NCBI GenBank assembly: GCA_019695305.1
Contig: JAIBAG010000001.1
Span: forward strand, 18,774-82,773
Direction: 5' to 3'
Origin: a bacterium
GTDB lineage: Bacteria; UBA10199; JAIBAG01
DNA length: 64,000 nucleotides
Under the pieces are notes generated by a model. The model was not told the DNA's origin. It did not search any database and saw nothing but the letters and a program-made list of their open reading frames with translations. The position numbers and the translations under genes are program-made. This document shows positions 4,934 to 62,568 of this stretch, in pieces. The stretch's first letter is position 1; each line of letters begins with the position of its first letter.

Positions 4934-6250
4934 TTAGCTTAGCTCCGTGGCCATCATTTTGGCTGATAATACAGCCGATTCAATGGTGGCCGGGTAGCCG
5001 GTTTGGGTCCAGTCACCGATTACATAGAAATTATCGAAGGGGGATTTTTGAGGGGGGCGTAATTTGTCACTTTGAGGCGTAATCGACATGGTGGCATTTA
5101 CTTCCTTATTCACCAAGCTATGGATGAGTGAGGCTTCGTTTGCTTTGGGAAAAAGAGATTTAAATTCACTCAAAGCAAAAGCCATGATCTCTTCTTTCCC
5201 ACTATTCAAGAGATCATAAGCCCCGCTAATAACCCCCATATAATGATACGGTGGATGCGTGATATCGGATATTCTATTTTTATCAAACCACCAATGCACC
5301 TTTTTATCGGCCGCCCCCACAAACATATCGTCCATTATCGGGCGATCGAACCATAAGTTGATGGAAACAATTGGCGCTGTTTCTATTTTTTTAAGATTCG
5401 AAAAATAAGGAAGTTTTTCTACAAAACCTTCGGGAATAAGAGGCAACAAAGAGTTAGGCGGGAGGCTACTCACTACGAGATCCGCTTTAAAATGTTCTTT
5501 ATCCGTTTCTACCATCTGAACTTTGTTATCGAGCACATGAATTTTTTTTACACCACATCCTTTTATTACCTTGTGCCCTCTTAGTGTAAGATACTGCTCG
5601 GCCGGGTTAGCCAAAATATCGGAGAGATGCGTTTTAGCAATAATCAAACGTGAGTCAAAAACACTGCCTAAAATTCCTTTGGCCAATACTACAGCGAGCA
5701 TTGAAGCGGAGGCGCGTTTAGGATCATCATTGAGAGTAGCCAGCGTTAAGATATCCCAAAAATTTTTCTGAGAAAACTCGCTTTGATTTAATTTTTTAAG
5801 CCAGGGGGTAACGGTTAGCCCTTCCATATCATTTTTTTGGAGCGATTTTTGAAGTGCCACAAGCCCCAGCTTGTCTTTGAATGTAAGCGCTTTAAAGTTA
5901 AGAAAGGCGCGTAATAAATTAAGCGGTGGTTTTAAATCTGTAAGCTTAAAAATAGTTTTTTCGCCGTTTTCTAAAACAAGAGGAACTACGGTGGGATTTA
6001 AAATATTAAGATGGCGTTTTACACCCAGATAATCAAATAATTTAAGCGTTTCGTGATACGCTCCCATCATGAGATGCTGTCCGTTATCCACCCAGCTTCC
6101 CGTTTTTTTATCCTGAAAGGCATAGGCGCGCCCGCCCAAGAGAGGTTTCCGTTCGATTAAGGTGACAGCATAGCCCAACGCATCCAAATGGATAGCGGCG
6201 GCAATACCCGCAAAACCTCCGCCGATGATGATGGCCGTATTTTTACTCAT
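4934..6250 (-). CDS. hpnE: FAD-dependent oxidoreductase, HpnE-like squalene-associated desaturase (hydroxysqualene dehydroxylase)
   Basis: N-terminal Rossmann fold IIIGGGFAGIAAA...LIERKPLLGGRA, then DNGQHLMMGAY, the pattern of the HpnE / amine oxidase family. The internal ATG at 6248-6250 is chosen as start. Confidence 0.65.
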   Translation of the reverse strand: MSKNTAIIIGGGFAGIAAAIHLDALGYAVTLIERKPLLGGRAYAFQDKKTGSWVDNGQHLMMGAYHETLKLFDYLGVKRHLNILNPTVVPLVLENGEKTIFKLTDLKPPLNLLRAFLNFKALTFKDKLGLVALQKSLQKNDMEGLTVTPWLKKLNQSEFSQKNFWDILTLATLNDDPKRASASMLAVVLAKGILGSVFDSRLIIAKTHLSDILANPAEQYLTLRGHKVIKGCGVKKIHVLDNKVQMVETDKEHFKADLVVSSLPPNSLLPLIPEGFVEKLPYFSNLKKIETAPIVSINLWFDRPIMDDMFVGAADKKVHWWFDKNRISDITHPPYHYMGVISGAYDLLNSGKEEIMAFALSEFKSLFPKANEASLIHSLVNKEVNATMSITPQSDKLRPPQKSPFDNFYVIGDWTQTGYPATIESAVLSAKMMATELS

Positions 6251-6252
6251 GA

Positions 6253-7167
6253 TTATGTTCGTAAGGGCACACGGCCGTGTGCCCCTACAAGACAATGTTG
6301 CAAACAATTTTCTAAATTTGGATATTGAAACTGAAACCCGACTTTTGTTAACACGTGCGGATATACACGCGTGCTACCCAATAATAAATTTTGAGCCATC
6401 TCGCCCAACGCTAGTTTTAAAGCAAAGCCTGGTACAGGTAAAACTGTTGGTCGCTTTAAAACCTTACCGAGCGTTGCGGTAAATTCTTTATTAGTCACAG
6501 GCTGTGGAGAAACCAAATTTACCGGACCTGTTATTTCTTTTTGCACAATAAATTGAAACGAATTTATCCAATCGTCCAAATCAATCCAGCTCATATATTG
6601 CTGGCCGCTCCCCACAACACCACCTGCCCCCATTTTAAACGGCAAGTACATTTTAGATAACGCACCACCTTTAAGACTCAACACAATACCCGTGCGTAAA
6701 TAAGTGATAGGAACATTTTTTAAATGCTTAGTTTCATTTTCCCAGGCTACGCACACTTCTGGCAAAAAACCTGTGCCAGGTTCTGATTTTTCATCCAGCT
6801 TTTCATCACCACGCAACCCATAATAACCAATGGCCGAAGCTTGAAGATAATGTGCCGGTTTATTTTTAACTTTATTAAGAGCACCGCACAAAAGACGGGT
6901 AGATAAAATGCGGCTATCAATAATTTTCTTTTTTTGTTTATCGGTCCAGCGACCCGCGGCAATATTTTCACCGGAGAGATGAATAACAACATCGAAATTC
7001 TCAAGACTTTTTGGATCTAAAACTTGTTTTTCAATATCCCAAAAAATTTCGTTTTTATTTTTCGGCTGATGACGAACTAATTTATAAATTTGATCGTCAG
7101 GAAATGACTGGCTAATAGCCTGACCAATTAATCCCGAAGCACCTGAAATGAGAATTCGTCTCCCCAT
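6253..7167 (-). CDS. TIGR01777 family epimerase/oxidoreductase (YfcH-like, SDR fold with a DUF1731 C-terminus)
   Basis: N-terminal MGRRILISGASGLIGQ Rossmann motif. Length and C-terminal region fit YfcH. The start is taken at the MGRR ATG at 7165-7167. Confidence 0.7.
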   Translation of the reverse strand: MGRRILISGASGLIGQAISQSFPDDQIYKLVRHQPKNKNEIFWDIEKQVLDPKSLENFDVVIHLSGENIAAGRWTDKQKKKIIDSRILSTRLLCGALNKVKNKPAHYLQASAIGYYGLRGDEKLDEKSEPGTGFLPEVCVAWENETKHLKNVPITYLRTGIVLSLKGGALSKMYLPFKMGAGGVVGSGQQYMSWIDLDDWINSFQFIVQKEITGPVNLVSPQPVTNKEFTATLGKVLKRPTVLPVPGFALKLALGEMAQNLLLGSTRVYPHVLTKVGFQFQYPNLENCLQHCLVGAHGRVPLRT

Positions 7168-7190
7168 ACTCACATAAACACACAAAAGTA

Positions 7191-7349
7191 GTAATCTTTG
7201 AATACTTTTTTATTTTTTTGTAAATATGCGTCTCACCAACAAGCCCTCACCCTGCCATCCAAAAGCCCATCTTCACAGAACTTGTGAGGGCGTCATCTAA
7301 TAGACAGACTTCAGATTTACAAAAAAATAAAAAAGTATTCAAAGATTAC
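7191..7349. repeat. Nested-hairpin element, copy 1: 35-bp perfect terminal inverted repeats around a conserved core
   Basis: 7191-7225 (GTAATCTTTGAATACTTTTTTATTTTTTTGTAAAT) is the exact reverse complement of 7315-7349. The core carries an inner hairpin GCCCTCAC...GTGAGGGC and the motif GTCATCTAATAGACAG, which also occurs at 14350-14366. Confidence 0.75.
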
Positions 7350-7939
7350 GGATACAAACGCCCCACCACCCACTCCCCTTTTTCATTTTTACGATAGACA
7401 AAGCGATCGTGCAGGCGATACGGCTGCTCTATCCAAAATTCAATTTTAGAAGGATTTACTCTAAAACCACTCCAATGGGGCGGACGCGGAATTTCCTTAC
7501 CCTTAAACTTTTCAGAAAATTCCTTAAAACGTTTCTCTAAAGTATCACGGCTATCTAACACTTCACTCTGAAGGGAAGCCCAGGCGCCAATTTGGCTATC
7601 TAAAGGACGGGAACGAAAATACTCATCGGCTTCAGCATCACTAACAACACTAACCTTACCTTTAATACGCACCTGTTTTTTTAATTTTTCCCAATAAAAA
7701 TTAAGTGCTGCAACAGGATTCTTTTTTAAAGCGCGTCCTTTCGACGAATTAAAATTGGTAAAAAATACAAAACCATTTTCGTCAAAGCCTTTTAGTAAAA
7801 CAGTGCGGATGTCTGGATACCCGTTATCATCAAGAGTAGCCAGCATCATAGCCTCGGGCATGGAAAGCCCTGCATTTTTTTTGGCTTCTTCAAACCATTG
7901 GCCAAATTGCACAATAGGATTTGGGTTGAGTGCACTCAT
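7346..7939 (-). CDS. pdxH: Pyridoxamine 5'-phosphate oxidase
   Basis: Full-length match to the PdxH family, including the RTVLLKGFDENGFVFFTN region and the C-terminal WxGxR...P motif. Confidence 0.9.
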   Translation of the reverse strand: MSALNPNPIVQFGQWFEEAKKNAGLSMPEAMMLATLDDNGYPDIRTVLLKGFDENGFVFFTNFNSSKGRALKKNPVAALNFYWEKLKKQVRIKGKVSVVSDAEADEYFRSRPLDSQIGAWASLQSEVLDSRDTLEKRFKEFSEKFKGKEIPRPPHWSGFRVNPSKIEFWIEQPYRLHDRFVYRKNEKGEWVVGRLYP

Positions 7940-8913: not shown

Positions 8914-9116
8914 ATATTAGATCTCCTGTGTATGCCGTATGTAGGAAAAAACCCCAAAATGGTCCACTTTTTTTTAAAACTATCCATTTTTTATTTGACG
9001 TAAACCCCAAATCTTAATATCCACCCTGTTCTGTATCCTATATTGGATATAATCTCTCCTCCGATGGTTTGGAAGATGGATTGGGCATATTGCCCGTATT
9101 ATTTAATGGAGTATCT

Positions 9117-9332
9117 ATGAAAACACGCGGTCGCGTAAAATGGTTTAACGATTCTAAAGGTTTTGGTTTTATCGAGCAGGACAATGGCCAGGATGTATTT
9201 GTTCATTATTCAGCCATTGGTGGTGACGGTTATAAATCCCTCCAAGAAGGTCAGGAAGTTGAGTTTGAACTTCAAACTGGTGCTAAGGGCCCTATGGCTC
9301 AAAACGTAACCAAAGTTGAAGCTAACGCTTAA
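9117..9332 (+). CDS. Cold-shock protein, CspA family
   Basis: KGFGFI and [11 protein letters not shown] motifs. ATG at 9117 with a GGAG Shine-Dalgarno 7 nt upstream. The 5' UTR is long. Confidence 0.9.
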
Positions 9333-9401
9333 TCTTTTAAACGTTTCTTAAAAATTGAGTTTAAAATTCCCGCTCTATAAGCGGCATGGTTTTTTGCGGC
9401 C

Positions 9402-11613: not shown

Positions 11614-14121
11614 TTACTCACTACCTTCCTCAGAAATAGCTTCGGGTGGTAAATCAGCTGCAGTTTCAATGGGAGCGGCTACAGCCACTTCATCGTCACT
11701 TTCGGCAACTTTAGCAACCGATACAACTTTTTCGCCGGTTTCTAAACGTACTAACCGTACACCCTGGGTATTACGTCCCATGTCGGAAATTTGCTTCACA
11801 TGCATGCGGATAATACGGCCCAAGGTAGTAATCAGCATAATGTCGTCAGTTTCAATCACTTCCAAAACACCCACCACATTGCCGGTTTTATCGGTGGTTT
11901 TCATGGTAATAATGCCACTTCCACCACGACCCTGACAACGATACTCGTCGGTGGAGGTTCTTTTACCATAACCCAATTCCGATACAGTAAGCATGCTGGC
12001 ACCTGTAGAAACAACATCCATGCTTACAACACGGTCGCCATTGCCAAGAGAAATACCACGCACGCCGGTAGCTACACGCCCCATGTTACGCACGTCTTCT
12101 TCTTTAAAACGAATGGTTTGGCCTTGTAGGGTAGAAATCATCACATCGTTTTTATTATGTGTTACACGCACCATGACTAATTCATCGCCATCGTCAATAG
12201 AAATGGCAATAATACCACCGGCACGCGGGTTGGAATAAGCCAATAGCTCGGTTTTTTTAACCGTCCCGTTTTTAGTCACAAACACAATGCTTTCGGCCGC
12301 CTCAAAATTTTTAATGGGCATAATCGCCGCCACTTTTTCGTTAGGCTGAAGCGTAATAAGATTGGCAATTGATTTACCCTTGGCGGCGCGGCCGGCCTGG
12401 GGAATTTCATGTACACGCACCCAATGCAAGCGACCCAGCGATGTAAACACCAGCATATAGCTATGTGTGCTGGCAATAAAAAGCTGTTCTACAAAATCTT
12501 CTTCGCGCGTAGCCATACCCATTTTACCTTTACCACCACGGTTTTGTGCACGGTAAATGGCACTGGGGTTACGCTTAATAAAACCTTGATGACTAACAGT
12601 AACCACCATTTCTTCTTCTTGGATAAGATCTTCAACAGAAATATCATCTAAGGAACCAGCCAACAATTCGGTACGGCGGGGATCGGCATATTTGGCTTTA
12701 ATTTCTTTTAATTCATTGGTGATAATTTCAAATACCAGTTTTTCGGACGCCAAAATTTCACGCAGTTTGCCAATTAAGGTTAATACTTCTTTATACTCAT
12801 TAATAATTTTATCCCGTTCAAGCCCCGTTAAGCGTTGCAGGCGCATTTCCAAAATGGCCTGAGCCTGAATTTCGGTTAATCCAAAGCGGGCACACAAGCC
12901 GCTTTTGGCTTCAAGAGGATTGGGTGCTTTTTTAATAAGCGCAATCACTTCGTCGATATTTTCAACAGCAATTTTAAGACCTTCTAAAATATGAGCCCGA
13001 CGAAGCGCTTCTTCCAGTTCAAAATGTGTGCGACGCAAAACAACTTCTTTGCGGTGCGACACAAAAAGAAGTAGCATGTCTTTTAAATTTAAAATTTTAG
13101 GCTGACCGTCTACAATAGCCAACATAATCACGCCAAACGAACTTTGCATGGCGGTATGTTTGTACAGTTGATTAAGCACAACTGAACTTGCGGCCGCTTT
13201 TTTAAGCTCAATCACCACGCGCAAGCCTTCGCGGTCGGATTCGTCGCGAATTTCGCTAATTCCTTCAATTTTATCTTCGTGCACTAGGTTTGCAATCGAC
13301 TCAATAAGGCGCGCTTTATTAACCTGAAACGGAAGTTCGGTAATCACAATCATTTCGCGCTCGGCCTTATTCATGGGTTCAATGGTGGCTTTGGCGCGCA
13401 TCTGCAAAATACCACGACCGGTGCGGTAAGCCTGATGAATACCACCCAAACCATGTATTTGAGCGCCGGTAGGGAAATCGGGGCCTGGCACAATTTTAAT
13501 TAATTCTTCAATAGTCACATCGGGCTTATTAATAACGGCCACCAGCGCATCAATCACTTCACCTAAATTATGGGGAGGAATTTTGGTAGCCATCCCCACA
13601 GCAATACCGTCGGAACCGTTAATTAAAAGATTAGGAACTTTTGTAGGAAGTACGGTGGGTTCTTCGGTAGACGTATCAAAATTAGGGGTAAATTCGACAG
13701 TATTTTTGTCGATGTCGGCCATCATTTCTTCAGCCAAACTCATCATTTTACATTCGGTGTAACGGTAAGCAGCAGCCGAATCACCATCGATGGAACCAAA
13801 GTTACCTTGCCCATCAATTAAGGGGTAACGCATGTTCCATTCTTGCGCCATGCGAACAAGAGAATCATAAACAGCCGAATCGCCATGAGGGTGATATTTT
13901 TTAAGCACTTCCCCCACCACACCGGCGCATTTTGAATAACGCTTGGAAGACAGGAGACCCTCACGAAACATGGCATAAAGGATTCTCCGATGAACCGGTT
14001 TTAAACCGTCACGGATATCAGGTAGCGCACGGCCTACAATCACGCTCATGGCGTAATCGAGGTAAGAGTGCTTCATTTCATCTTCAATGTTAATGCTTTG
14101 AGTTTCTTTTGTAAGGGTCAT
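11614..14121 (-). CDS. gyrA: DNA gyrase subunit A
   Basis: N-terminus [29 protein letters not shown] with the catalytic Tyr region, followed by C-terminal beta-pinwheel repeats. Length is 835 aa. Confidence 0.97.
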
Positions 14122-14253
14122 GGGCGTCTATTTTTACGAGTGAAAATTGATCAATTTTTATAGAAATTTATGCCCCAAAAGTCAATTGTGAAAGAGAGGT
14201 TTTTAACTTTATTTTCAACTCTTTTTCTCCTCTTAAACACCCAAAATCAGAAG

Positions 14254-14405
14254 GACTGGGTTGTATTTAAAAATTTGAGAAAACGTGTGGCCAACCTTAT
14301 AAGCCCTCACTCCACCACCCAAAAGACTCGTTTCCCAGCAATGGTGAGGGCGTCATCTAATAGACAGCCTCCACGTTTTCTCAAATTTTTAAATACAGCC
14401 CAGTC
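14254..14405. repeat. Nested-hairpin element, copy 2: same conserved core as 7191..7349 but with different ~35-bp terminal inverted repeats
   Basis: 14254-14290 is the near-perfect reverse complement of 14371-14405. The core AAGCCCTCAC...GGTGAGGGCGTCATCTAATAGACAG matches copy 1, while the outer arms differ in sequence and still pair. Confidence 0.7.
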
Positions 14406-14664
14406 CAATGCACTGCGTCAACTGAACAAAAGTGTTCAAACTGGCAAATTCGCATGTTTTCTGCATTTGCGGGCGTTAAAAAAATACATGGCCCGCATTA
14501 TTAATCTTGACTTTGGTTTGCCGTTCGCTATCCTTTTCAAACTTCAACATTTTTCTTCGTGCAAAAATTTTTTCCCACGAAGATTACAGGGCTTCTTGCA
14601 TAACGCTTAAGCCTAACCGGGCAATACGTTATACAAAAAGACCAATACCTTAAGGAGGTAACAA

Positions 14665-14937
14665 ATGACTAAAGCCGAACTGATCGATCAGATCGCAAAT
14701 GAAGCTGAATGTTCCAAGGCTCAAGCCGAAAAAGCCTTGAACGCCGCTACCGACTCTATTGCCAAGTGCCTTAAAAAGGGTGGTAAAATTACCTTAACCG
14801 GTTTTGGAACTTTCTCGGTTTCTAAACGTAAGGCCCGTATTGGCCGTAACCCTCAAACCGGCGCCGAAATTAAAATTAAGGCTACCCGTGTTCCTAAATT
14901 TAAGGCCGGTCAGGCTTTAAAAAGTCTTGTTAGCTAA
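14665..14937 (+). CDS. hup: HU family DNA-binding protein
   Basis: Typical 90-aa HU sequence (MTKAELIDQIA...GFGTF...RNPQTGAEI). AAGGAGG Shine-Dalgarno upstream. Confidence 0.93.
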   Translation: MTKAELIDQIANEAECSKAQAEKALNAATDSIAKCLKKGGKITLTGFGTFSVSKRKARIGRNPQTGAEIKIKATRVPKFKAGQALKSLVS

Positions 14938-30273: not shown

Positions 30274-30488
30274 TAATATGAAAAAATCTCGTCTTTATAG
30301 CGACGAGAAAATATCAGATGCAAGGCGCCTGAGGAGACCCGACTGAGGCGTATCGTGAATACGCCGCAGGGAGTGGTCGACGAAGGCAACGCGGCCACGA
30401 AGTGGTCCCCTTGGGACAGATGATGTTTTATCGTCGCTATAAAGTCTTAATCCCGTGTTCCTCCTCGGAACACTTTATTACCCTAACG

Positions 30489-44805: not shown

Positions 44806-44839
44806 CTTCTTATAAAAAACTCTCTAAACACTTTCTTGA

Positions 44840-45012
44840 AATTACTTAAAAATCCCTGGAGGGACCTTTCTTATATTGAGACCCTCCGTCGTCAATTGGA
44901 ACAACCGGGATACAATAGACCCAATTGGCGGTGGCGGAGCGTCGCTCGGGTCGGCCCGAGCGTAAGCGTGTCTCAATATAAGAAAGGTTCTGGAAGGGAT
45001 TTTTAAGTAATT
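44840..45012. repeat. 173-bp long-stem palindromic element: 43-bp arms with a 6-bp central mismatch, flanking a structured 87-bp core
   Basis: 44840-44882 pairs with 44970-45012. The two 18-19 bp blocks are perfect, with GGAGGG/TCCAGA unpaired between them. The core contains sub-hairpins GCTCGGG/CCCGAGC and CAATTGG/CCAATTG. It lies in the divergent promoter region between ldcA and the E1-alpha gene. Confidence 0.7.
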
Positions 45013-45099
45013 TCTCCCACTTAACGCACCACATCAAAATCTACCTCAGAATAAAGATTTCCATAGACGGAATCAACGCCTTTCTTTTACAATTTGCAT

Positions 45100-50873: not shown

Positions 50874-51227
50874 CTATAAACCCCATCTCCGAAGACAATT
50901 ATTATAATTTCGTTTTGCTTCTTGATAATCACTATCTGTGATAGTTTTTTTCATAAATATACTATATTTAGATTTTCGTTCGGGTGATAATTCATCATAT
51001 TCAAAGCCAGATATATATCGAGATAATGAAGAATCATCCTCATATATTTGTAATAATCGATAATCAATATTTTTTTGAATTACCCAATTAATATACCCAT
51101 CATACTCGTGCCTTTGACAATAAGATCGAATGCCCATTGGGCGTAATTGAAACCAAATAAATAATAAAAAGCCGATAATAGATCCTATAACTATTTTATT
51201 TTTTTTAGTCATATAAATATAGTGCAA
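50874..51227 (-). CDS. Hypothetical small membrane-anchored protein of 117 aa
   Basis: N-terminal TM helix (IVIGSIIGFLLFIWF) then a soluble domain. AT-rich codon usage. Confidence 0.4.
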   Translation of the reverse strand: MHYIYMTKKNKIVIGSIIGFLLFIWFQLRPMGIRSYCQRHEYDGYINWVIQKNIDYRLLQIYEDDSSLSRYISGFEYDELSPERKSKYSIFMKKTITDSDYQEAKRNYNNCLRRWGL

Positions 51228-51378
51228 AACGTGTTTACAAAACCATAAAAAATAAACAAGTTTTTTGATCTGACAGGTCTTAATAAAGCTTTATAACTCC
51301 TCCATAACAGTTTCATGTCTATTTCTGGAACTGTTCCCGTTCACAATACAAGTAAAAATTAAAAAATATGCAGTAACT

Positions 51379-56654: not shown

Positions 56655-56875
56655 TGGTTGTAAGACCTAGTAACCATAAAGCCGAGCGATGCTTGTCTCT
56701 ATGGAACTAGCTCTAAAGGAAGTCCGGTGTAATTCCGGCACGGTCCCGCCGCTGTAAGCTGGGGGTCTTTTTAAGATCAACCTCTGTGCAAAGCAAGTCA
56801 CTGTCCCGAACTATCGGGGTGGGAAGACCGCACAAGAGGCCAGCAAGTCAGAATACCAGCCAATCCATTCAAAAT
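56655..56875 (+). ncRNA. Cobalamin (B12) riboswitch
   Basis: Core AAAGGAAGTCCGGTGTAATTCCGGCACGGTCCCGCCGCTGTAAG fits the consensus GGGAA..GGTG.AA.TCC..GC.G.CCCGCCACTGT. A downstream AGTCACTG...GGGAAG and a B12-box-like AGTCAGAATACCAGCC are present. A sigma-70-like TTGACA lies at 56618. The element sits in the 5' leader of the lipoprotein gene at 56993. Confidence 0.8.
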
Positions 56876-56992
56876 TATTTGGATGTGCAGTGCGAGCGAC
56901 ACTTTGTTTTGGTTCCTTCCTTTTGGAATTTTTCCCCAAGACATCGTCTGTTCTCGCTTGTTGAAAATATAAAAATTCAACAGGAGAATCCC

Positions 56993-58291
56993 ATGAAAAA
57001 ATATCTTTCTTTATTTACTATTCTATTTCTATTTGCCGCTTGTGGCAGTGTACAAAACCAAGCAACAGGCAGCATTAACGATGATGATTTAGATAACGTA
57101 TTAAGTCCGCTTGATGACCCTGATACTGATATCCCTGAGGATAGTGATGAAATTGTGTATGACGATACCTTTGTTGCTTACATGTACGGAACGGCATATG
57201 GTTCTAATGGCCAGCTTTTTCTTACTTCTACAGCAACGCTTGATACACTTTTTAACAGCGGCGTTCCTAGCTTGGGCAATGATGCCATTATCAAAGCTCA
57301 AAATAATTTGGTGTATGTTTTGCACCGTGGAGGAGCATTCGTTTCGGGCTCTACCGATAACGTGCAAATTATTGATCCGGCCAATAGCTTTGCAACGGTC
57401 AATCAATGGTCTACCGGTAACGGCACCAACCCACAGGACATCATTATTATTGATAATAAAGCCTTCATCAGCTTAGGCAATCCAGAATCCGATCCGGATA
57501 ATGTGGCCGATAATGGTAAACCCGGCGACGTAATTGTGATGAATTTAGATACTGGTAACATCGAAAATCGCATCAGCTTTTTTGATTTGTTAAATGATGA
57601 TGATTACAAAGCATCTAATGCCAACAAAATGTTGCTTATTGACGATAAAATTTATGTATTGGTTCAGGATTTAGGCGAAGGCTTTAATCCTTATGCCATT
57701 AATGCAGCAGGGCATTTAGTCACATTGGATGCCACCACCGGCGAGCGCCTGGATAGCATTACCCTGGCGGGGCGTAATCCTGTAGGGTTGGCCGTTAGTC
57801 ACGATAAAAAAACAATCTATGTTTCTTTTGGAGCTCCATTTGATGACTGGTTTACAATAAACGAATACGAAACGGATGAATTTGGCGGCTTACAAATTTT
57901 ATCGGCCGCCGATACAACGCACAGTACTTTTATTGCCGATAATAGTTTTGGAGGATATTTGGAAGGCATTGCCACCGGTAATGGTCTGTTGTACGTTACC
58001 ATTTCTCATTACAATGCTTCAAATTTTAGTTTTACCTCCAACATTTGGACCATGGATGAGACCAACACAAACGTAGAAGGTTTTTTTAACCTATTGCCTG
58101 CAGCACAAGACATTAGAACTTTTGCCATAGCGCCGGATGGTAATTTATGGGTTTCGTACCGAACCATTTTTAAAGAAACCGGCATAGCAGGTGATGCCAC
58201 AGTAGAAATTTTGGACGGCATCACCGGCGATTATACTGGCACAACATACACGCCCAGTGCGCCCGTAGTTTCTATCGCCTTTGAAAAATAG
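56993..58291 (+). CDS. Beta-propeller surface lipoprotein under a B12 riboswitch. Candidate BtuG-like cobalamin-binding protein.
   Basis: Signal peptide with lipobox LFAACGS. GGAGAA Shine-Dalgarno 6 nt upstream of the ATG. Repeated beta-strand-rich segments consistent with a 7-bladed propeller. Immediately downstream of the cobalamin riboswitch. Confidence 0.55.
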   Translation: MKKYLSLFTILFLFAACGSVQNQATGSINDDDLDNVLSPLDDPDTDIPEDSDEIVYDDTFVAYMYGTAYGSNGQLFLTSTATLDTLFNSGVPSLGNDAIIKAQNNLVYVLHRGGAFVSGSTDNVQIIDPANSFATVNQWSTGNGTNPQDIIIIDNKAFISLGNPESDPDNVADNGKPGDVIVMNLDTGNIENRISFFDLLNDDDYKASNANKMLLIDDKIYVLVQDLGEGFNPYAINAAGHLVTLDATTGERLDSITLAGRNPVGLAVSHDKKTIYVSFGAPFDDWFTINEYETDEFGGLQILSAADTTHSTFIADNSFGGYLEGIATGNGLLYVTISHYNASNFSFTSNIWTMDETNTNVEGFFNLLPAAQDIRTFAIAPDGNLWVSYRTIFKETGIAGDATVEILDGITGDYTGTTYTPSAPVVSIAFEK

Positions 58292-58345: not shown

Positions 58346-58523
58346 GTAGTCTTCTGTGGTTTTTTCCCCGCATGTTTTTTACAAGTTTTCTTTTCTCACT
58401 TTTTACCACCTATAAATAGTTGATTTATATATATAATTTTAAATCATTTTTCTTTATTTTGGCTTCAAAATTGCATATCTATTGATTGGGCACAATTAGG
58501 GAAATCAACACTTGGAGGACCCT

Positions 58524-59990
58524 ATGCGCCTTTTTTTATTTCTGTTAGCTTTCTTTTTAACCTCAACAGCTTATGCCCAAACCATTGATCAGCTTTTCGA
58601 TGTACGGATTGATGATGCCTTTTTCTACAATGATGATGTAGCTAACCTTATACCAGAATCTTCCGCTGATTATGCAGTTGATAAAATGATTTATGACCCA
58701 AACCTTTCGCGTATGGTGGGGGGCGGAACTCATGGCACCGAATACATCACCCTCATTCAATATTTTATGGAACCACAAGACAGCAGAACCACTTTTGGTG
58801 AATTTGATAAGGTTTATTATTACGATTTAAATGCTAATAAAAAACCAACCCGTGTTGTGAGCTTGATGAGCGACTCTAATTATTATTACATGCTGGCAGA
58901 ATATACTTTAGGCACAGGTGAGTACGCCAAATTTGGCAGCACCATTTTAAAAATTGAAAAACGAAATCCCAATCATTACGAAGAAAAAGATCTTTCCACC
59001 ATTTTTATGACACCTCAGTATGATGCTTCTAAATCTTTAAAAGGTGGCTTTGCCGAATTATCGGTTGATAACAATAAAATTATAGGCAGCGTAACACAAG
59101 TAAAGCGCACTTTTGTGTTTGTTTTATCCACTAGCACTTTAATGCCCACAAATTTTGGTCGCGATCAAACAAGCCCCGAAGGGCGTGTTGGGGTAACCGA
59201 CGGTATACCGGATGGTTATACTGTAATAGATATGCCTAAAGGTGGCAATGTAGGTGCACGCGTTAACGGAGGCTACGTTATTTTTACAAAAGATGCCGAT
59301 CCTCTTGGTAATCATTATGCTGTTTTTATTGACCGTAATGGATTTGTTAAAAATGAATTTAATGATGCAGGTAAAAATTACCGTACATATCACTTTGCGG
59401 AAGATGATTTTAGTTTAGTGGGTGTTAAATACAACAGGCCCACCAACCAAATTATTATTGTTGGCACCATTGAATGCAGCAATAAAATTTTAATTAGCCG
59501 CCTAAGACAAAACAACGGACGTGCAGATATTGAGAACACCAATGTTATTGAAGAAGATCTTGCTTATCAACATGCTATCACGGTCGCCGATTTCGTTGTA
59601 CGTCCCGAATCGGGCATTATTATTTTATTTGGTAAATATACCATATTTGAAATGCGTCCACCGGGTTATGGGTTTTATACAAGTGAGGATCAAATTGAAA
59701 ACGACTTGGCTTTAGGCGCTGATGTTTTTCGAATTAAAAATGCCTATGTTGCTGTTATAGGAAACGATAATGAAATGATCAATTTAGGAACATCCACTGC
59801 TATTACCTCGGACTTTTTGGAAAAGGCCTATATTTTAACAAGAATTGGCATTAGCTATAATGCAGCGGGGTTTACCGCTGGCGCTACATATTCTAATAAT
59901 TATTTGTATATGACAGGCCTCATGGATAATGATTATATGCCCTTTGTTAAAGTGGAATACACCCCACCGGTTTCAAAGTTTGTGCGATAG
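58524..59990 (+). CDS. Hypothetical secreted protein of 489 aa
   Basis: Signal peptide MRLFLFLLAFFLTSTAYAQ. GGAGG Shine-Dalgarno 5 nt upstream of ATG 58524. No recognised domain. Confidence 0.55.
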   Translation: MRLFLFLLAFFLTSTAYAQTIDQLFDVRIDDAFFYNDDVANLIPESSADYAVDKMIYDPNLSRMVGGGTHGTEYITLIQYFMEPQDSRTTFGEFDKVYYYDLNANKKPTRVVSLMSDSNYYYMLAEYTLGTGEYAKFGSTILKIEKRNPNHYEEKDLSTIFMTPQYDASKSLKGGFAELSVDNNKIIGSVTQVKRTFVFVLSTSTLMPTNFGRDQTSPEGRVGVTDGIPDGYTVIDMPKGGNVGARVNGGYVIFTKDADPLGNHYAVFIDRNGFVKNEFNDAGKNYRTYHFAEDDFSLVGVKYNRPTNQIIIVGTIECSNKILISRLRQNNGRADIENTNVIEEDLAYQHAITVADFVVRPESGIIILFGKYTIFEMRPPGYGFYTSEDQIENDLALGADVFRIKNAYVAVIGNDNEMINLGTSTAITSDFLEKAYILTRIGISYNAAGFTAGATYSNNYLYMTGLMDNDYMPFVKVEYTPPVSKFVR

Positions 59991-60948: not shown

Positions 60949-61488
60949 AAAAATTACCTCTTCATACTTAATTGACTACAAAAAGTTATCGTCATTTTTT
61001 TGAAAGAATTGCCTGATATTCATTCCTTCTTCTCACTTTCTGCATCCAAACTGTTATCACCTCCTTATCCCCAGCTGTGGAAAAGCCTGTTGATATTAAT
61101 GTATGGCAATGTAGGGCAATAAAAAGGGTCTGAAGCCCCGTATAAAAGAAAGGTTTTGGGGACTCTACCCCCTAAGCTTGCAAAAGTTCTGCTAAGAGAT
61201 TTAAAAATACAAATAATTTCAATTATTTAAATATGAAACAAAAAAGCTTTATTGGCATAAAGGTTGCTTTATTATGTTTACAAATACAGGCTAGGGAGCT
61301 TTGCTCTTTAGCCCCTTAATACCCTCCGAGCCGCTTGTAGCGAGGATTCTACAAGCGGCTCACCCCCTTTAACACATTTCAATTTAAAGACTTTCTAGAA
61401 CGTGCTCGACAAGAAAGCTTTTAGACCTTAAAAGAACCTTACAATTTTTTGCAAAATATAACGGCCTCGGGCGCGTTATAAAGTTTAT

Positions 61489-62568
61489 ATGCCTCATTTT
61501 AATGTTAATTCCGGTACCAGTTTATACCTCTTGTTGGCGCTCCTCTTTATTGTCATGAATGCCTTTTTTGTAGCGGCCGAATTTGCTTTGGTAAAAATCC
61601 GTAAAACCAGGCTTCAAGTTCTTGTGGGCGAAAGAAACAGACTTGCCAAAATAGCGCTGGGAATGGTGGATAATTTAGATGCTTATCTTTCAGCAACACA
61701 ACTGGGCATTACACTGGCAAGTTTAGGGCTTGGCTGGATAGGCGAACCGGCCTTTGCTGTTTTAGTGAAAGGTTTTCTATCCACGTTTAATCTTAACATA
61801 ACTGACAATACGCTTCATTCCGTAGCTTTTATGTCGGCCTTTCTTATTATCTCGGCCCTTCATATTATTTTAGGCGAACTCGTTCCCAAATCGCTGGCCA
61901 TTCGCACCACCGAATATATTTGCTTAGCCGTTGCCCTGCCCATGCGCATTTTTTACTACGTTTTCTTTCCCTTTTTATGGATGCTCAACGGAACAGCCAA
62001 CGTTGTACTTAAACTTATCCGTTTGCCCATGCCTACAGGCTCAAGCCATGCACATAGCGAAGAAGAATTAAAACTGGTGGTTGAAGATTCGTTTGTAGAA
62101 GGCGCTATCGAATCGGACCAACGTACACTTTTAAATAAAGCAATCGATTTTGGGTCCAAAACCATTGGCGATATCATGTTGCCCTTTGATAAAGTTGTAT
62201 TTTTGGACTTATCCGAAAGTTTAAACGAAAACTTAACCCGCGCACGCGATGCCGGCCATACTCGGTTTCCCGTCTTAAGTATCGACAAAACTATTTTAGG
62301 TTTTGTTCATATGAAAGATATTATTTGGAGCTTGGAAAACCATGAAGTAATTAATTTGTACGATCTTATCCGGCCTCTCATCACTTTTAGGCAACAAGTA
62401 AATATAGACGAAGCTTTAAAACAATTTAGAAGAAAAAAAATTCATATGGCCATGGTTAAAAACCAACACGATGTTATTATTGGTATTGTAACTATGGAAG
62501 ATATTATTGAAGAATTAGTGGGCGAAATTGAGGATGAATTTGATGAAGAAGCCGCTAAAGCTAATTAA
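61489..62568 (+). CDS. HlyC/CorC (CNNM) family transporter: DUF21, CBS pair and CorC_HlyC domains
   Basis: DUF21 N-terminus (FFVAAEFALVKIRKTRL), a CBS pair, and a C-terminal transporter-associated domain with an acidic tail. Confidence 0.85.
   Translation: MPHFNVNSGTSLYLLLALLFIVMNAFFVAAEFALVKIRKTRLQVLVGERNRLAKIALGMVDNLDAYLSATQLGITLASLGLGWIGEPAFAVLVKGFLSTFNLNITDNTLHSVAFMSAFLIISALHIILGELVPKSLAIRTTEYICLAVALPMRIFYYVFFPFLWMLNGTANVVLKLIRLPMPTGSSHAHSEEELKLVVEDSFVEGAIESDQRTLLNKAIDFGSKTIGDIMLPFDKVVFLDLSESLNENLTRARDAGHTRFPVLSIDKTILGFVHMKDIIWSLENHEVINLYDLIRPLITFRQQVNIDEALKQFRRKKIHMAMVKNQHDVIIGIVTMEDIIEELVGEIEDEFDEEAAKAN

Follow-up and report, generated by a model that had tools for sequence, protein, structure and literature searches.

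Short intergenic palindromic repeats are a known kind of bacterial DNA. The Correia/NEMIS, ERIC, RUP and BOX elements measure 100–200 bp, contain no open reading frame (ORF), lie between genes or inside operons, can form RNA hairpins in a co-transcript and may affect termination or mRNA stability, and the doublets of repetitive extragenic palindromic (REP) sequences known as REPINs are mobilised by the Y1 transposases called RAYTs. REP/REPIN, MITE (standing for miniature inverted-repeat transposable element), ERIC and Correia families are all defined by conserved ends; a conserved centre held in locus-specific perfect stems is unusual for bacterial repeats. Such an element, in which the ends vary, the middle is conserved and the ends are still perfectly complementary, is described here from between pdxH and a TIGR01777 oxidoreductase gene of an uncultured bacterium of the GTDB lineage UBA10199; JAIBAG01. 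The window that we analysed is a stretch of 64,000 nucleotides (GenBank assembly GCA_019695305.1, contig JAIBAG010000001.1, positions 18,774 to 82,773 of the forward strand), and coordinates below are counted from its first letter. We read the feature as a copy of a lineage-specific, dispersed, non-coding, REPIN/MITE-like hairpin element, the stem of which is kept Watson–Crick paired at the DNA level, with a conserved apex and tail and a variable stem, and we give this reading a probability of about 0.45. It rests on the layout of the element, a second colinear copy, full compensation between the arms, the existence of other core families with the same architecture, and the empty HU–gyrA spacers of five relatives.

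The first copy (copy 1) fills the gap between pdxH and the TIGR01777 gene, which are co-directional on the minus strand, as an earlier note on this DNA had observed, and the 35-bp exact inverted repeats that the note placed at 7191–7225 and 7315–7349 were confirmed by a repeat search and by strand matches: the 35-mer GTAATCTTTGAATACTTTTTTATTTTTTTGTAAAT has one match on each strand (7191–7225, plus; 7315–7349, minus) and none across 100 dinucleotide shuffles. The arms extend to 38 nt at 97% complementarity (7191–7228 and 7312–7349) and enclose a spacer of 83 nt. Within this core lie, as claimed, an inner hairpin, in which GCCCTCAC (7243–7250) pairs with GTGAGGGC (7284–7291) around a loop of 33 nt, and directly after it the 16-nt motif GTCATCTAATAGACAG (7292–7307); the arms have a G+C content of 16% and the core one of 51%. 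When folded, the whole element is far more stable than its shuffles, both as minus-strand RNA (−71.5 kcal/mol, z = −7.6) and as plus-strand DNA (−41.7 kcal/mol, z = −11.6). The conserved unit is longer than the palindrome and runs from the start of a 13-nt tail outside the inverted repeat (7175–7349, 175 nt). The parts of copy 1, and the layout of copy 2, are listed here.

7175..7187, plus strand: 5' tail motif TAAACACACAAAA of copy 1, conserved, outside the palindrome; its exact pattern, TAAACACNCAAAA, occurs twice in 64 kb
7191..7228, plus strand: left arm of copy 1, perfect across 7191–7225
7229..7311, plus strand: core of copy 1, 83 nt, comprising a junction, AAGCCCTCAC (7241–7250), the 33-nt C-rich loop, GTGAGGGC, GTCATCTAATAGACAG and a second junction
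7312..7349, plus strand: right arm of copy 1, perfect across 7315–7349, overlapping the stop codon of pdxH and the closing base of the preceding Pro codon
14234..14406, plus strand: copy 2, with tail 14234–14246, left arm 14253–14287, GCCCTCAC 14303–14310, GTGAGGGC plus the 16-mer 14344–14367, and right arm 14372–14406

The second of the two copies that the note had counted in the window is located where the 24-mer GTGAGGGCGTCATCTAATAGACAG of copy 1 is found again without a mismatch (14344–14367), and its palindrome has arms of 35 nt that are 97% complementary. Copies 1 and 2, which we call A-type, are colinear over 175 and 173 nt, respectively, and match in the order and spacing of their parts. 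The tail pattern is the same at 12 of its 12 specified bases, and its two matches end 3 and 6 nt before the left arms of copies 1 and 2; the AAGCCCTCAC block agrees at 10/10 positions and the GTGAGGGCGTCATCTAATAGACAG block at 24/24 (46 of 47 specified bases over the three blocks), the 33-nt loops at 20/33, with CCAAAAG common to both, and the arms, which keep the same register and length, at 16/35. In an anchored alignment of the arm pairs, 16 of the 35 are the same, 18 have changed on both sides with pairing kept, no pair shows a one-sided change and a single pair is not formed; 98.8% of the arm cells are paired, against 40–56% when the partner columns are slid by one to three columns. Seven of the 18 changes are A-T<->T-A flips, and such flips, which pass through no wobble intermediate, point together with the near-pure Watson–Crick pairing to copying at the level of DNA. 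The in-register identity of the arms (16/35) compares with a shuffle mean of 10.7 (p about 0.025), a weak sign that the A-type arms may share ancestry, in which case common descent with concerted change would fit better than fresh arms at each site.

These comparisons bear on what kind of element is in question. Because the arms differ in sequence between the copies, they cannot be conserved transposase-binding terminal repeats, and the strict definition of a MITE fails, which leaves of the earlier MITE-like or structured element the part that calls it repeated, structured and non-coding; nor are the arms ordinary insertion sequence (IS) or MITE termini, since copy 2 has the same core between arms of another sequence in which all differences are compensated. 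Each A-type element also carries a CA-rich motif, CA(C/T)(A/C)CAAAAG, twice, in the 5' tail and in the apical loop (7251–7283 and 14311–14343), predicted to be single-stranded in both places, and in copy 2 the 9-mer CACCCAAAA is exactly repeated between tail and loop; the pair may be a putative paired binding site on the plus strand. Neither copy contains a conserved ORF: the only conserved start, ATGACGCCCTCA on the minus strand, opens ORFs of 7 and 19 codons, and a short peptide encoded in the core was rejected, as these are not conserved. A 146-codon ORF at 14170–14610 (plus strand) spans copy 2 and matches no family; it is almost certainly spurious, and gene callers may annotate it as a hypothetical protein.

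The same architecture occurs with other cores. A window-wide inverted-repeat scan yields two further window elements, B-type and C-type, and at least five elements of this build, with other cores, are present in the nearest relatives; their AT-rich arms of 13–45 bp enclose GC-rich hairpin cores of 48–104 nt. The relatives are, by GyrA (MBX7147469.1 in this genome; 72–74% identity), metagenome-assembled genomes labelled 'Deltaproteobacteria bacterium', RIFCSPLOWO2_12_FULL_40_28 and GWA2_45_12, whose gyrA-region loci (given below by handles such as L005) are syntenic with the window; for PdxH (MBX7147464.1) no relative exceeds 63%. All elements, in the window and in the relatives, are intergenic.

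44838..45014, plus strand: B-type element between the divergent LD-carboxypeptidase and E1 dehydrogenase genes; 45-nt arms, 89%; 87-nt core with two GC-rich hairpins; AAACAC 6 nt left of the left arm
30293..30444, no strand assigned: C-type element; 24-nt arms, 92%; 104-nt core with 63% G+C; begins 20 nt past the flagellin stop codon
L005, 4716–4872: element with 38-nt arms, 84%; core homologous to that of window 44838–45014
L092, 21876–21998: D-type element with 16-nt perfect arms around a two-hairpin module
L094, 3203–3316: element with 33-nt perfect arms starting inside the TAA of the upstream gene, then CAGUUUUUUUU
L095, 2796–2919: element with 17-nt arms
L092 21889–21975, L092 16020–16140 (minus strand) and L094 17257–17345 (minus strand): D-type module, each full copy with different short flanking inverted repeats

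Across the four window elements the arms have 16–36% G+C and the cores 51–63%, and over eight elements 231 of the 246 arm pairs are Watson–Crick, with only seven G-T or A-C pairs; arm complementarity ranges from 84 to 100%. The D-type module has a second copy in L092, the core of which is 89% identical between unrelated arms, and recurs in another genus, in L094, at 83% identity. When the same scan was run at a stricter threshold over ~0.94 Mb of unrelated bacterial gyrA loci, which came from a GyrA metagenome search and are distant (<=62% identity over full-length matches), it gave three matches, none clearly of this build. The architecture is present in the window and its relatives and scarce in the control, and it is therefore a property of this lineage, due neither to chance nor to an assembly artefact from a single study. 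In 221 kb of window and relatives, a covariance model built on the A-type retrieved no further A-type copy and matched only the L094 element, through its arms.

Several smaller observations touch these elements. The D-type module resembles a small RNA (ATGAAA-hairpin-TTTCAT, an A-rich linker, then GGCCCCAAGGGGCC and a U-run) and is 83–89% conserved within and between genera; its first hairpin also stands alone, as a bidirectional terminator, at L092 20668–20699. The L094 element is followed on the mRNA strand by the U-rich tract CAGUUUUUUUUAUUUU, and 17 nt to its left (L094 3177–3185) lies the 9-mer GTGAGGGCG, the start of the A-type conserved block, which is either an A-type remnant or chance, the 8-mer GTGAGGGC/GCCCTCAC occurring about once per 60 kb in control DNA. 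At 51180–51271 of the window an AT-rich imperfect palindrome (38-nt arms, 74%, with a 16-nt loop and no core) has arms loosely like those of copy 1 and could be a decayed or coreless relative, or low-complexity DNA. AAACAC stands beside the left arms of three window elements and has 27 plus-strand occurrences in the 64 kb; it was set aside as a shared element signal, and only the exact A-type 13-mer was counted as part of the element, because the leaders of this lineage commonly contain CA-rich strings of this sort. A hammerhead or other ribozyme in the C-type core found no Rfam support.

The two A-type copies sit in dissimilar surroundings. At copy 1 the flanking ORFs, PdxH and the TIGR01777 oxidoreductase, both score well over the NCBIfam cut-offs. 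The pdxH ORF occupies 7346–7939 (minus strand), and its TAA stop (7346–7348) lies inside the right arm, as the note had remarked, and so does base 7349, with which the final Pro codon ends. The start codon of the TIGR01777 gene is an ATG at 7167 (minus strand), 23 nt past the left arm, with no clear Shine–Dalgarno sequence, and on the mRNA strand the U-rich tract UACUUUUGUGUGUUUAU begins 3 nt past the stem and lies 8 nt before this AUG; the element explains both the 178-bp gap and the missing ribosome-binding site ahead of the TIGR01777 gene. Copy 2 is placed between the divergent promoters of gyrA (TTGACT-17-TATAAA, with the −35 box at 14180–14185, minus strand) and HU (−35 box at 14507–14512), outside both predicted transcripts. 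For this reason termination or processing cannot be a general role of the element, and the processing site or intra-operon terminator suggested by the earlier note is possible for copy 1, where UACUUUUGUGUGUUUAU follows the hairpin, and does not extend to the family.

Both promoters are conserved in the relatives, that of gyrA as TTGACWTTTGRGGGG (L090 and L094) or as ATTGACTTTT (L005 and L008), and the HU–gyrA spacer, which measures 543 bp here, is 200–340 bp shorter in two of them, at 202 bp (L005) and 322 bp (L008). No element is found in the orthologous spacer of L005, L008, L090, L094 or L095, and copy 2 was therefore either gained in this lineage or lost in every other. An alignment of the spacers with MAFFT had offered the gyrA-proximal arm of copy 2 as native promoter DNA, which was rejected, as the real conserved promoter is found on the gyrA side of the element; the idea that the switch from gyrA to HU marks a replication origin was likewise rejected, the GC skew being negative over nearly the whole window with no sustained change of sign. 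A different kind of junction is seen at the L005 element, where homology with a close genome begins 8 nt to its right (L005 4872–4880 against L093 4881) and the DNA to its left is unrelated. This one-sided homology puts the L005 element at a rearrangement breakpoint, and L093 was not accepted as a clean empty site for it.

We also looked for the machinery that might move such an element, and for families to which it might belong. Among the window ORFs scanned (10 with NCBIfam and 43 with Pfam, 7 having no family at all) we detected no transposase, integrase, reverse-transcriptase, recombinase or Y1 transposase/RAYT-type family, and no flanking direct repeat of at least 3 nt that could be a target-site duplication was found at any element read, in agreement with the earlier note on both counts; a Bro-N domain protein similar to phage anti-repressors (49623–50471, minus strand) is the only scanned ORF that hints at a mobile-element origin. 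A gathering-threshold scan of the window with Rfam 15 returned only cspA, cobalamin and tRNA, and scans by E-value gave copy 1 nothing beyond generic long-hairpin matches far under threshold (plant miRNA precursors and TwoAYGGAY, by the AT-rich stem only) and copy 2 no match. Phage and plasmid records held no match, and the core 20-mer GAGGGCGTCATCTAATAGAC had none in collections of genomes, metagenomes and viruses, among which the source genome is not included. A looser hairpin pattern met four matches in viral contigs, all in GC-rich coding DNA and about as many as the chance estimate, and was discarded; a search of genome contigs with a lineage-specific protein alignment led to a single locus, a duplicate of L005. 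The full-text literature searched contains no description of a hairpin repeat with a conserved centre and locus-specific perfect stems, and to our knowledge this variant has not been reported.

Among described systems REPINs are the closest. Like them, the A-type element is short, non-coding, intergenic and multi-copy, makes no target duplication, and folds as a whole into a long hairpin whose less conserved stem part carries compensatory changes, here the 18 double-sided ones. A hairpin that bears a single-stranded tail at its 5' end is the putative intermediate of REPINs (PMC3116915), and the A-type element also has a tail, a conserved one, outside its hairpin. The differences are equally clear: in REPINs the ends, or arms, are conserved REP sequences and the middle varies, whereas here conservation falls on the apex and tail, and the variable part is the long lower stem; REPINs also come in tens to hundreds of copies with a cognate RAYT gene in the genome; moreover, neither the conserved REP 16-mer nor a RAYT gene was seen here, and the arms are AT-rich rather than GC-rich. 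With the MITEs and other palindromic repeats introduced above, the window element shares its small, non-coding and multi-copy character (175 nt, two copies in 64 kb) along with their other general traits, but MITE copies have conserved terminal repeats that correspond to those of a parent IS and are bordered by target duplications, whereas here the arms differ between copies of one core, those of the other elements are unrelated, and no duplication is present.

Other systems resemble the element in structure only. Integron attC sites are recombination sites set by their folded structure, with arms that vary between sites and a variable terminal structure. They keep RYYYAAC and GTTRRRY at their outer ends, however, and lie in cassette arrays next to intI, whereas the present elements are scattered among housekeeping genes and their outer ends (GTAATC/GATTAC, GGACTG/CAGTCC, GAAATT/AATTTC, CTTTAT) show neither motif. 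Perfect duplexes longer than 20 bp are substrates of RNase III, and copy 1, a hairpin that follows a stop codon, precedes the next cistron and is succeeded by a U-rich tract, is like an intrinsic terminator or the RNase III intercistronic hairpins of phage T7 early mRNA and the processing stems of rRNA. Unlike an intrinsic terminator, which has a short GC-rich stem, a small loop and an immediate U tract, it has a 35-bp stem of 16% G+C around a branched 83-nt core, and a consensus terminator scan found no terminator-like site in 6900–7700 or 14000–14800. TwoAYGGAY RNA (RF01731) likewise has a long closing stem around internal hairpins; membership was rejected, as the match of copy 1 (30.4 bits against a gathering score of 43) comes from the AT-rich stem only, the hairpins with AYGGAY loops are unaligned, and copy 2 does not match. 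A retron non-coding RNA (msr-msd, with a1/a2), which has a reverse-transcriptase gene directly downstream and an msr and msd that need room between a1 and a2, was rejected too, in view of the neighbours (pdxH and TIGR01777, or gyrA and HU), the lack of a reverse-transcriptase family in the scanned ORFs and a core of only 83 nt.

The element consists of a conserved GC-rich structured core, to which the A-type adds the conserved 13-nt single-stranded 5' tail, set in a long AT-rich stem that is free in sequence as long as its halves stay complementary. We propose that the conserved blocks are cis sites for propagation or for the binding of a trans-acting factor, and that an intermediate of single-stranded DNA requires the stem in hairpin form. 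The perfection of the stem could come from DNA-templated copying of one arm from the other, by hairpin-directed template switching or gene conversion, from selection among replicating copies, or from both, with selection at the RNA level the less likely cause. Template switching at quasipalindromes and hairpin-directed conversion are known mutational routes in Escherichia coli. Selection on a single-stranded DNA hairpin would give the same arm pattern as templated copying; stepwise compensation in RNA usually would not. The blocky conservation (100% beside 46–61%) implies either purifying selection on each copy or long-diverged active lineages that keep their cis blocks and hairpin, and the latter situation, in which cis-required blocks and the ability to form a hairpin are retained, has been described for REPINs (PMC3116915). 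As a side effect, the pdxH–TIGR01777 transcript would carry a hairpin of roughly −70 kcal/mol followed by a U-rich tract, which should terminate or pause transcription or expose the RNA to RNase III and leave the downstream gene with a poor initiation region; copy 1 would then probably uncouple the two genes in part, by leaky termination, by stabilising the 3' end or by offering a site to RNase III.

We favour a dispersed element over a host regulatory RNA because copy 2 is outside the predicted transcripts, several core families share one architecture, and orthologous sites exist that lack the element. Against this stand the small number of A-type copies visible (two), the lack of a transposase or RAYT-type gene among the scanned ORFs and of any excision or insertion polymorphism, and the identity of four strains of the L005 species at their element. 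Fully conserved blocks beside regions of 46–61% are also expected from purifying selection on a functional RNA or DNA site, and the B core shared across genera, with wobbles on one strand, and the D core (83%) fit a host function as well as they fit mobility. Further, we know of no mechanism for mobile elements with variable termini, and the terminator-like role of copy 1 is deduced from its structure, the consensus scan having given no canonical terminator.

The alternative that survives best, unlikely in our view and still to be taken seriously, is a family of structured non-coding RNAs, either stand-alone small RNAs or cis-regulatory modules, in which the arms would be a closing or processing stem cut by RNase III, as are the stems that flank rRNA, and the core and CA-rich tail would be functional. 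Conserved blocks joined to fully covarying stems are the classic signature of such an RNA, and the B-type core argues for it too: its first helix (P2) is kept between L005 and the window, members of different genera, through two double and two wobble changes, the wobbles falling on the plus strand, and each B-type copy stands upstream of a same-strand gene, in L005 within a sigma-54 leader 55 nt before a CNNM gene and in the window 80 nt before the E1 dehydrogenase gene. The non-Watson–Crick arm pairs of the window point the same way, being G-T rather than A-C on the plus strand by 4:0, as does the CA-rich motif, which is predicted to be single-stranded each time it occurs. However, 33–38 perfect Watson–Crick pairs with almost no G-U and many A-U<->U-A flips are atypical of selection at the RNA level, and the A copies share no flanking promoter or terminator; copy 1, read on the plus strand, would be antisense to its own operon, and copy 2 is outside both neighbouring transcripts. 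The D-type of the relatives has an internal terminator-like hairpin and U-run ahead of its right arm, so that both arms would not be in one RNA, and Rfam offers no match.

A less probable explanation, which we rate as improbable, makes the core the mobile unit, one arm being created at each insertion as an inverted copy of the adjacent native DNA, or the palindrome growing outward later by template switching, so that the arms would be locus-specific by construction. In its favour, several arms run into gene ends: the right arm of copy 1 takes in the pdxH stop and the last base of the final codon at a C-terminus, ...RLYP, that we take to be the canonical one of PdxH; the L094 arm begins inside a TAA; and in L092 the final 2 nt of tRNA-Ser fall within an arm of the second D copy. 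The two D cores in that one genome, 89% identical between unrelated arms, agree with it, as do the A+T content of the arms, which is that of intergenic DNA while that of the cores is not, and the range of complementarity (84 to 100%), as expected with decay after synthesis. On the other hand, the conserved 13-nt tail is located outside the left arm, which makes that arm internal to the conserved unit, and the two A copies share arm length, register and an identity above chance (p about 0.025); the gene-end overlaps, of 2–4 nt, could be chance or later extension, and we know of no bacterial mechanism for inverted target duplications of 16–45 bp. An inverton, in which the inverted repeats that bound this short intergenic segment would be invertase recombination sites flipping the 83-nt core with its promoter-like TAGACA box (a weak sigma-70-like match, TAGACA, 16 nt, AAAAAT, that starts in the conserved 16-mer and reads outward), is very improbable, as one invertase recognises one repeat consensus and the arms have no common motif between elements, 83–89 bp is very short for synapsis, the ORF scan named no recombinase, both A copies point the same way and the repeats do not include the conserved tail.

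Away from the hairpin elements, the window contains other features of regulatory interest. A sigma-54-type promoter (TGGCAT-N5-TTGC) at 61253–61370 is followed by a conserved hairpin, TACCCTCCGAGCCGC...GCGGCTCACCCCC, upstream of a CNNM/CorC-type gene (61489–62568); this arrangement is kept in four relatives (L005 4562–4690, L095 about 2660–2780, L090 about 5890–6000 and L008 about 2310–2410), has no Rfam match and is a candidate lineage-specific leader or small RNA. The cspA thermoregulator match at 8963–9349 (plus strand; 82.9 bits, little more than the gathering score of 78), which comes from a lineage distant from the enterobacteria, overlaps a cold-shock ORF (9069–9332), the coding conservation of which may drive it. 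A cobalamin riboswitch at 56670–56878 (plus strand) overlaps the GTG start (56786) of an ORF (56786–58291) that, like the ORF at 58512–59990, has no Pfam family; the two are possibly novel genes for B12-related transport or binding.

Returning to the dispersed hairpin element that we favour, we put forward, tentatively and as something we would sooner doubt than assert, that it represents a previously undescribed hairpin class, in which a conserved apical module and 5' tail are carried in a stem of 16–45 bp that is rewritten at each locus by templated DNA copying, either through inverted duplication of the target when the element inserts, or by a palindrome that perfects itself and extends outward as far as constrained sequence, for instance a stop codon or a tRNA gene's end. 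Templated rewriting of the stem, if true, would give selfish or regulatory DNA a new means of making long perfect palindromes in bacterial chromosomes and of keeping them. If the pattern held genome-wide, it could mean a mobilisation that depends on structure and an apical module and not on the sequence of the ends or, on another reading, a hairpin-templated DNA conversion by which 35-bp palindromes stay perfect although they change in sequence. Both readings bear on the persistence of palindromes, on the partition of operons by inserted hairpins and on the annotation of non-coding DNA in uncultured lineages that lack reference families.

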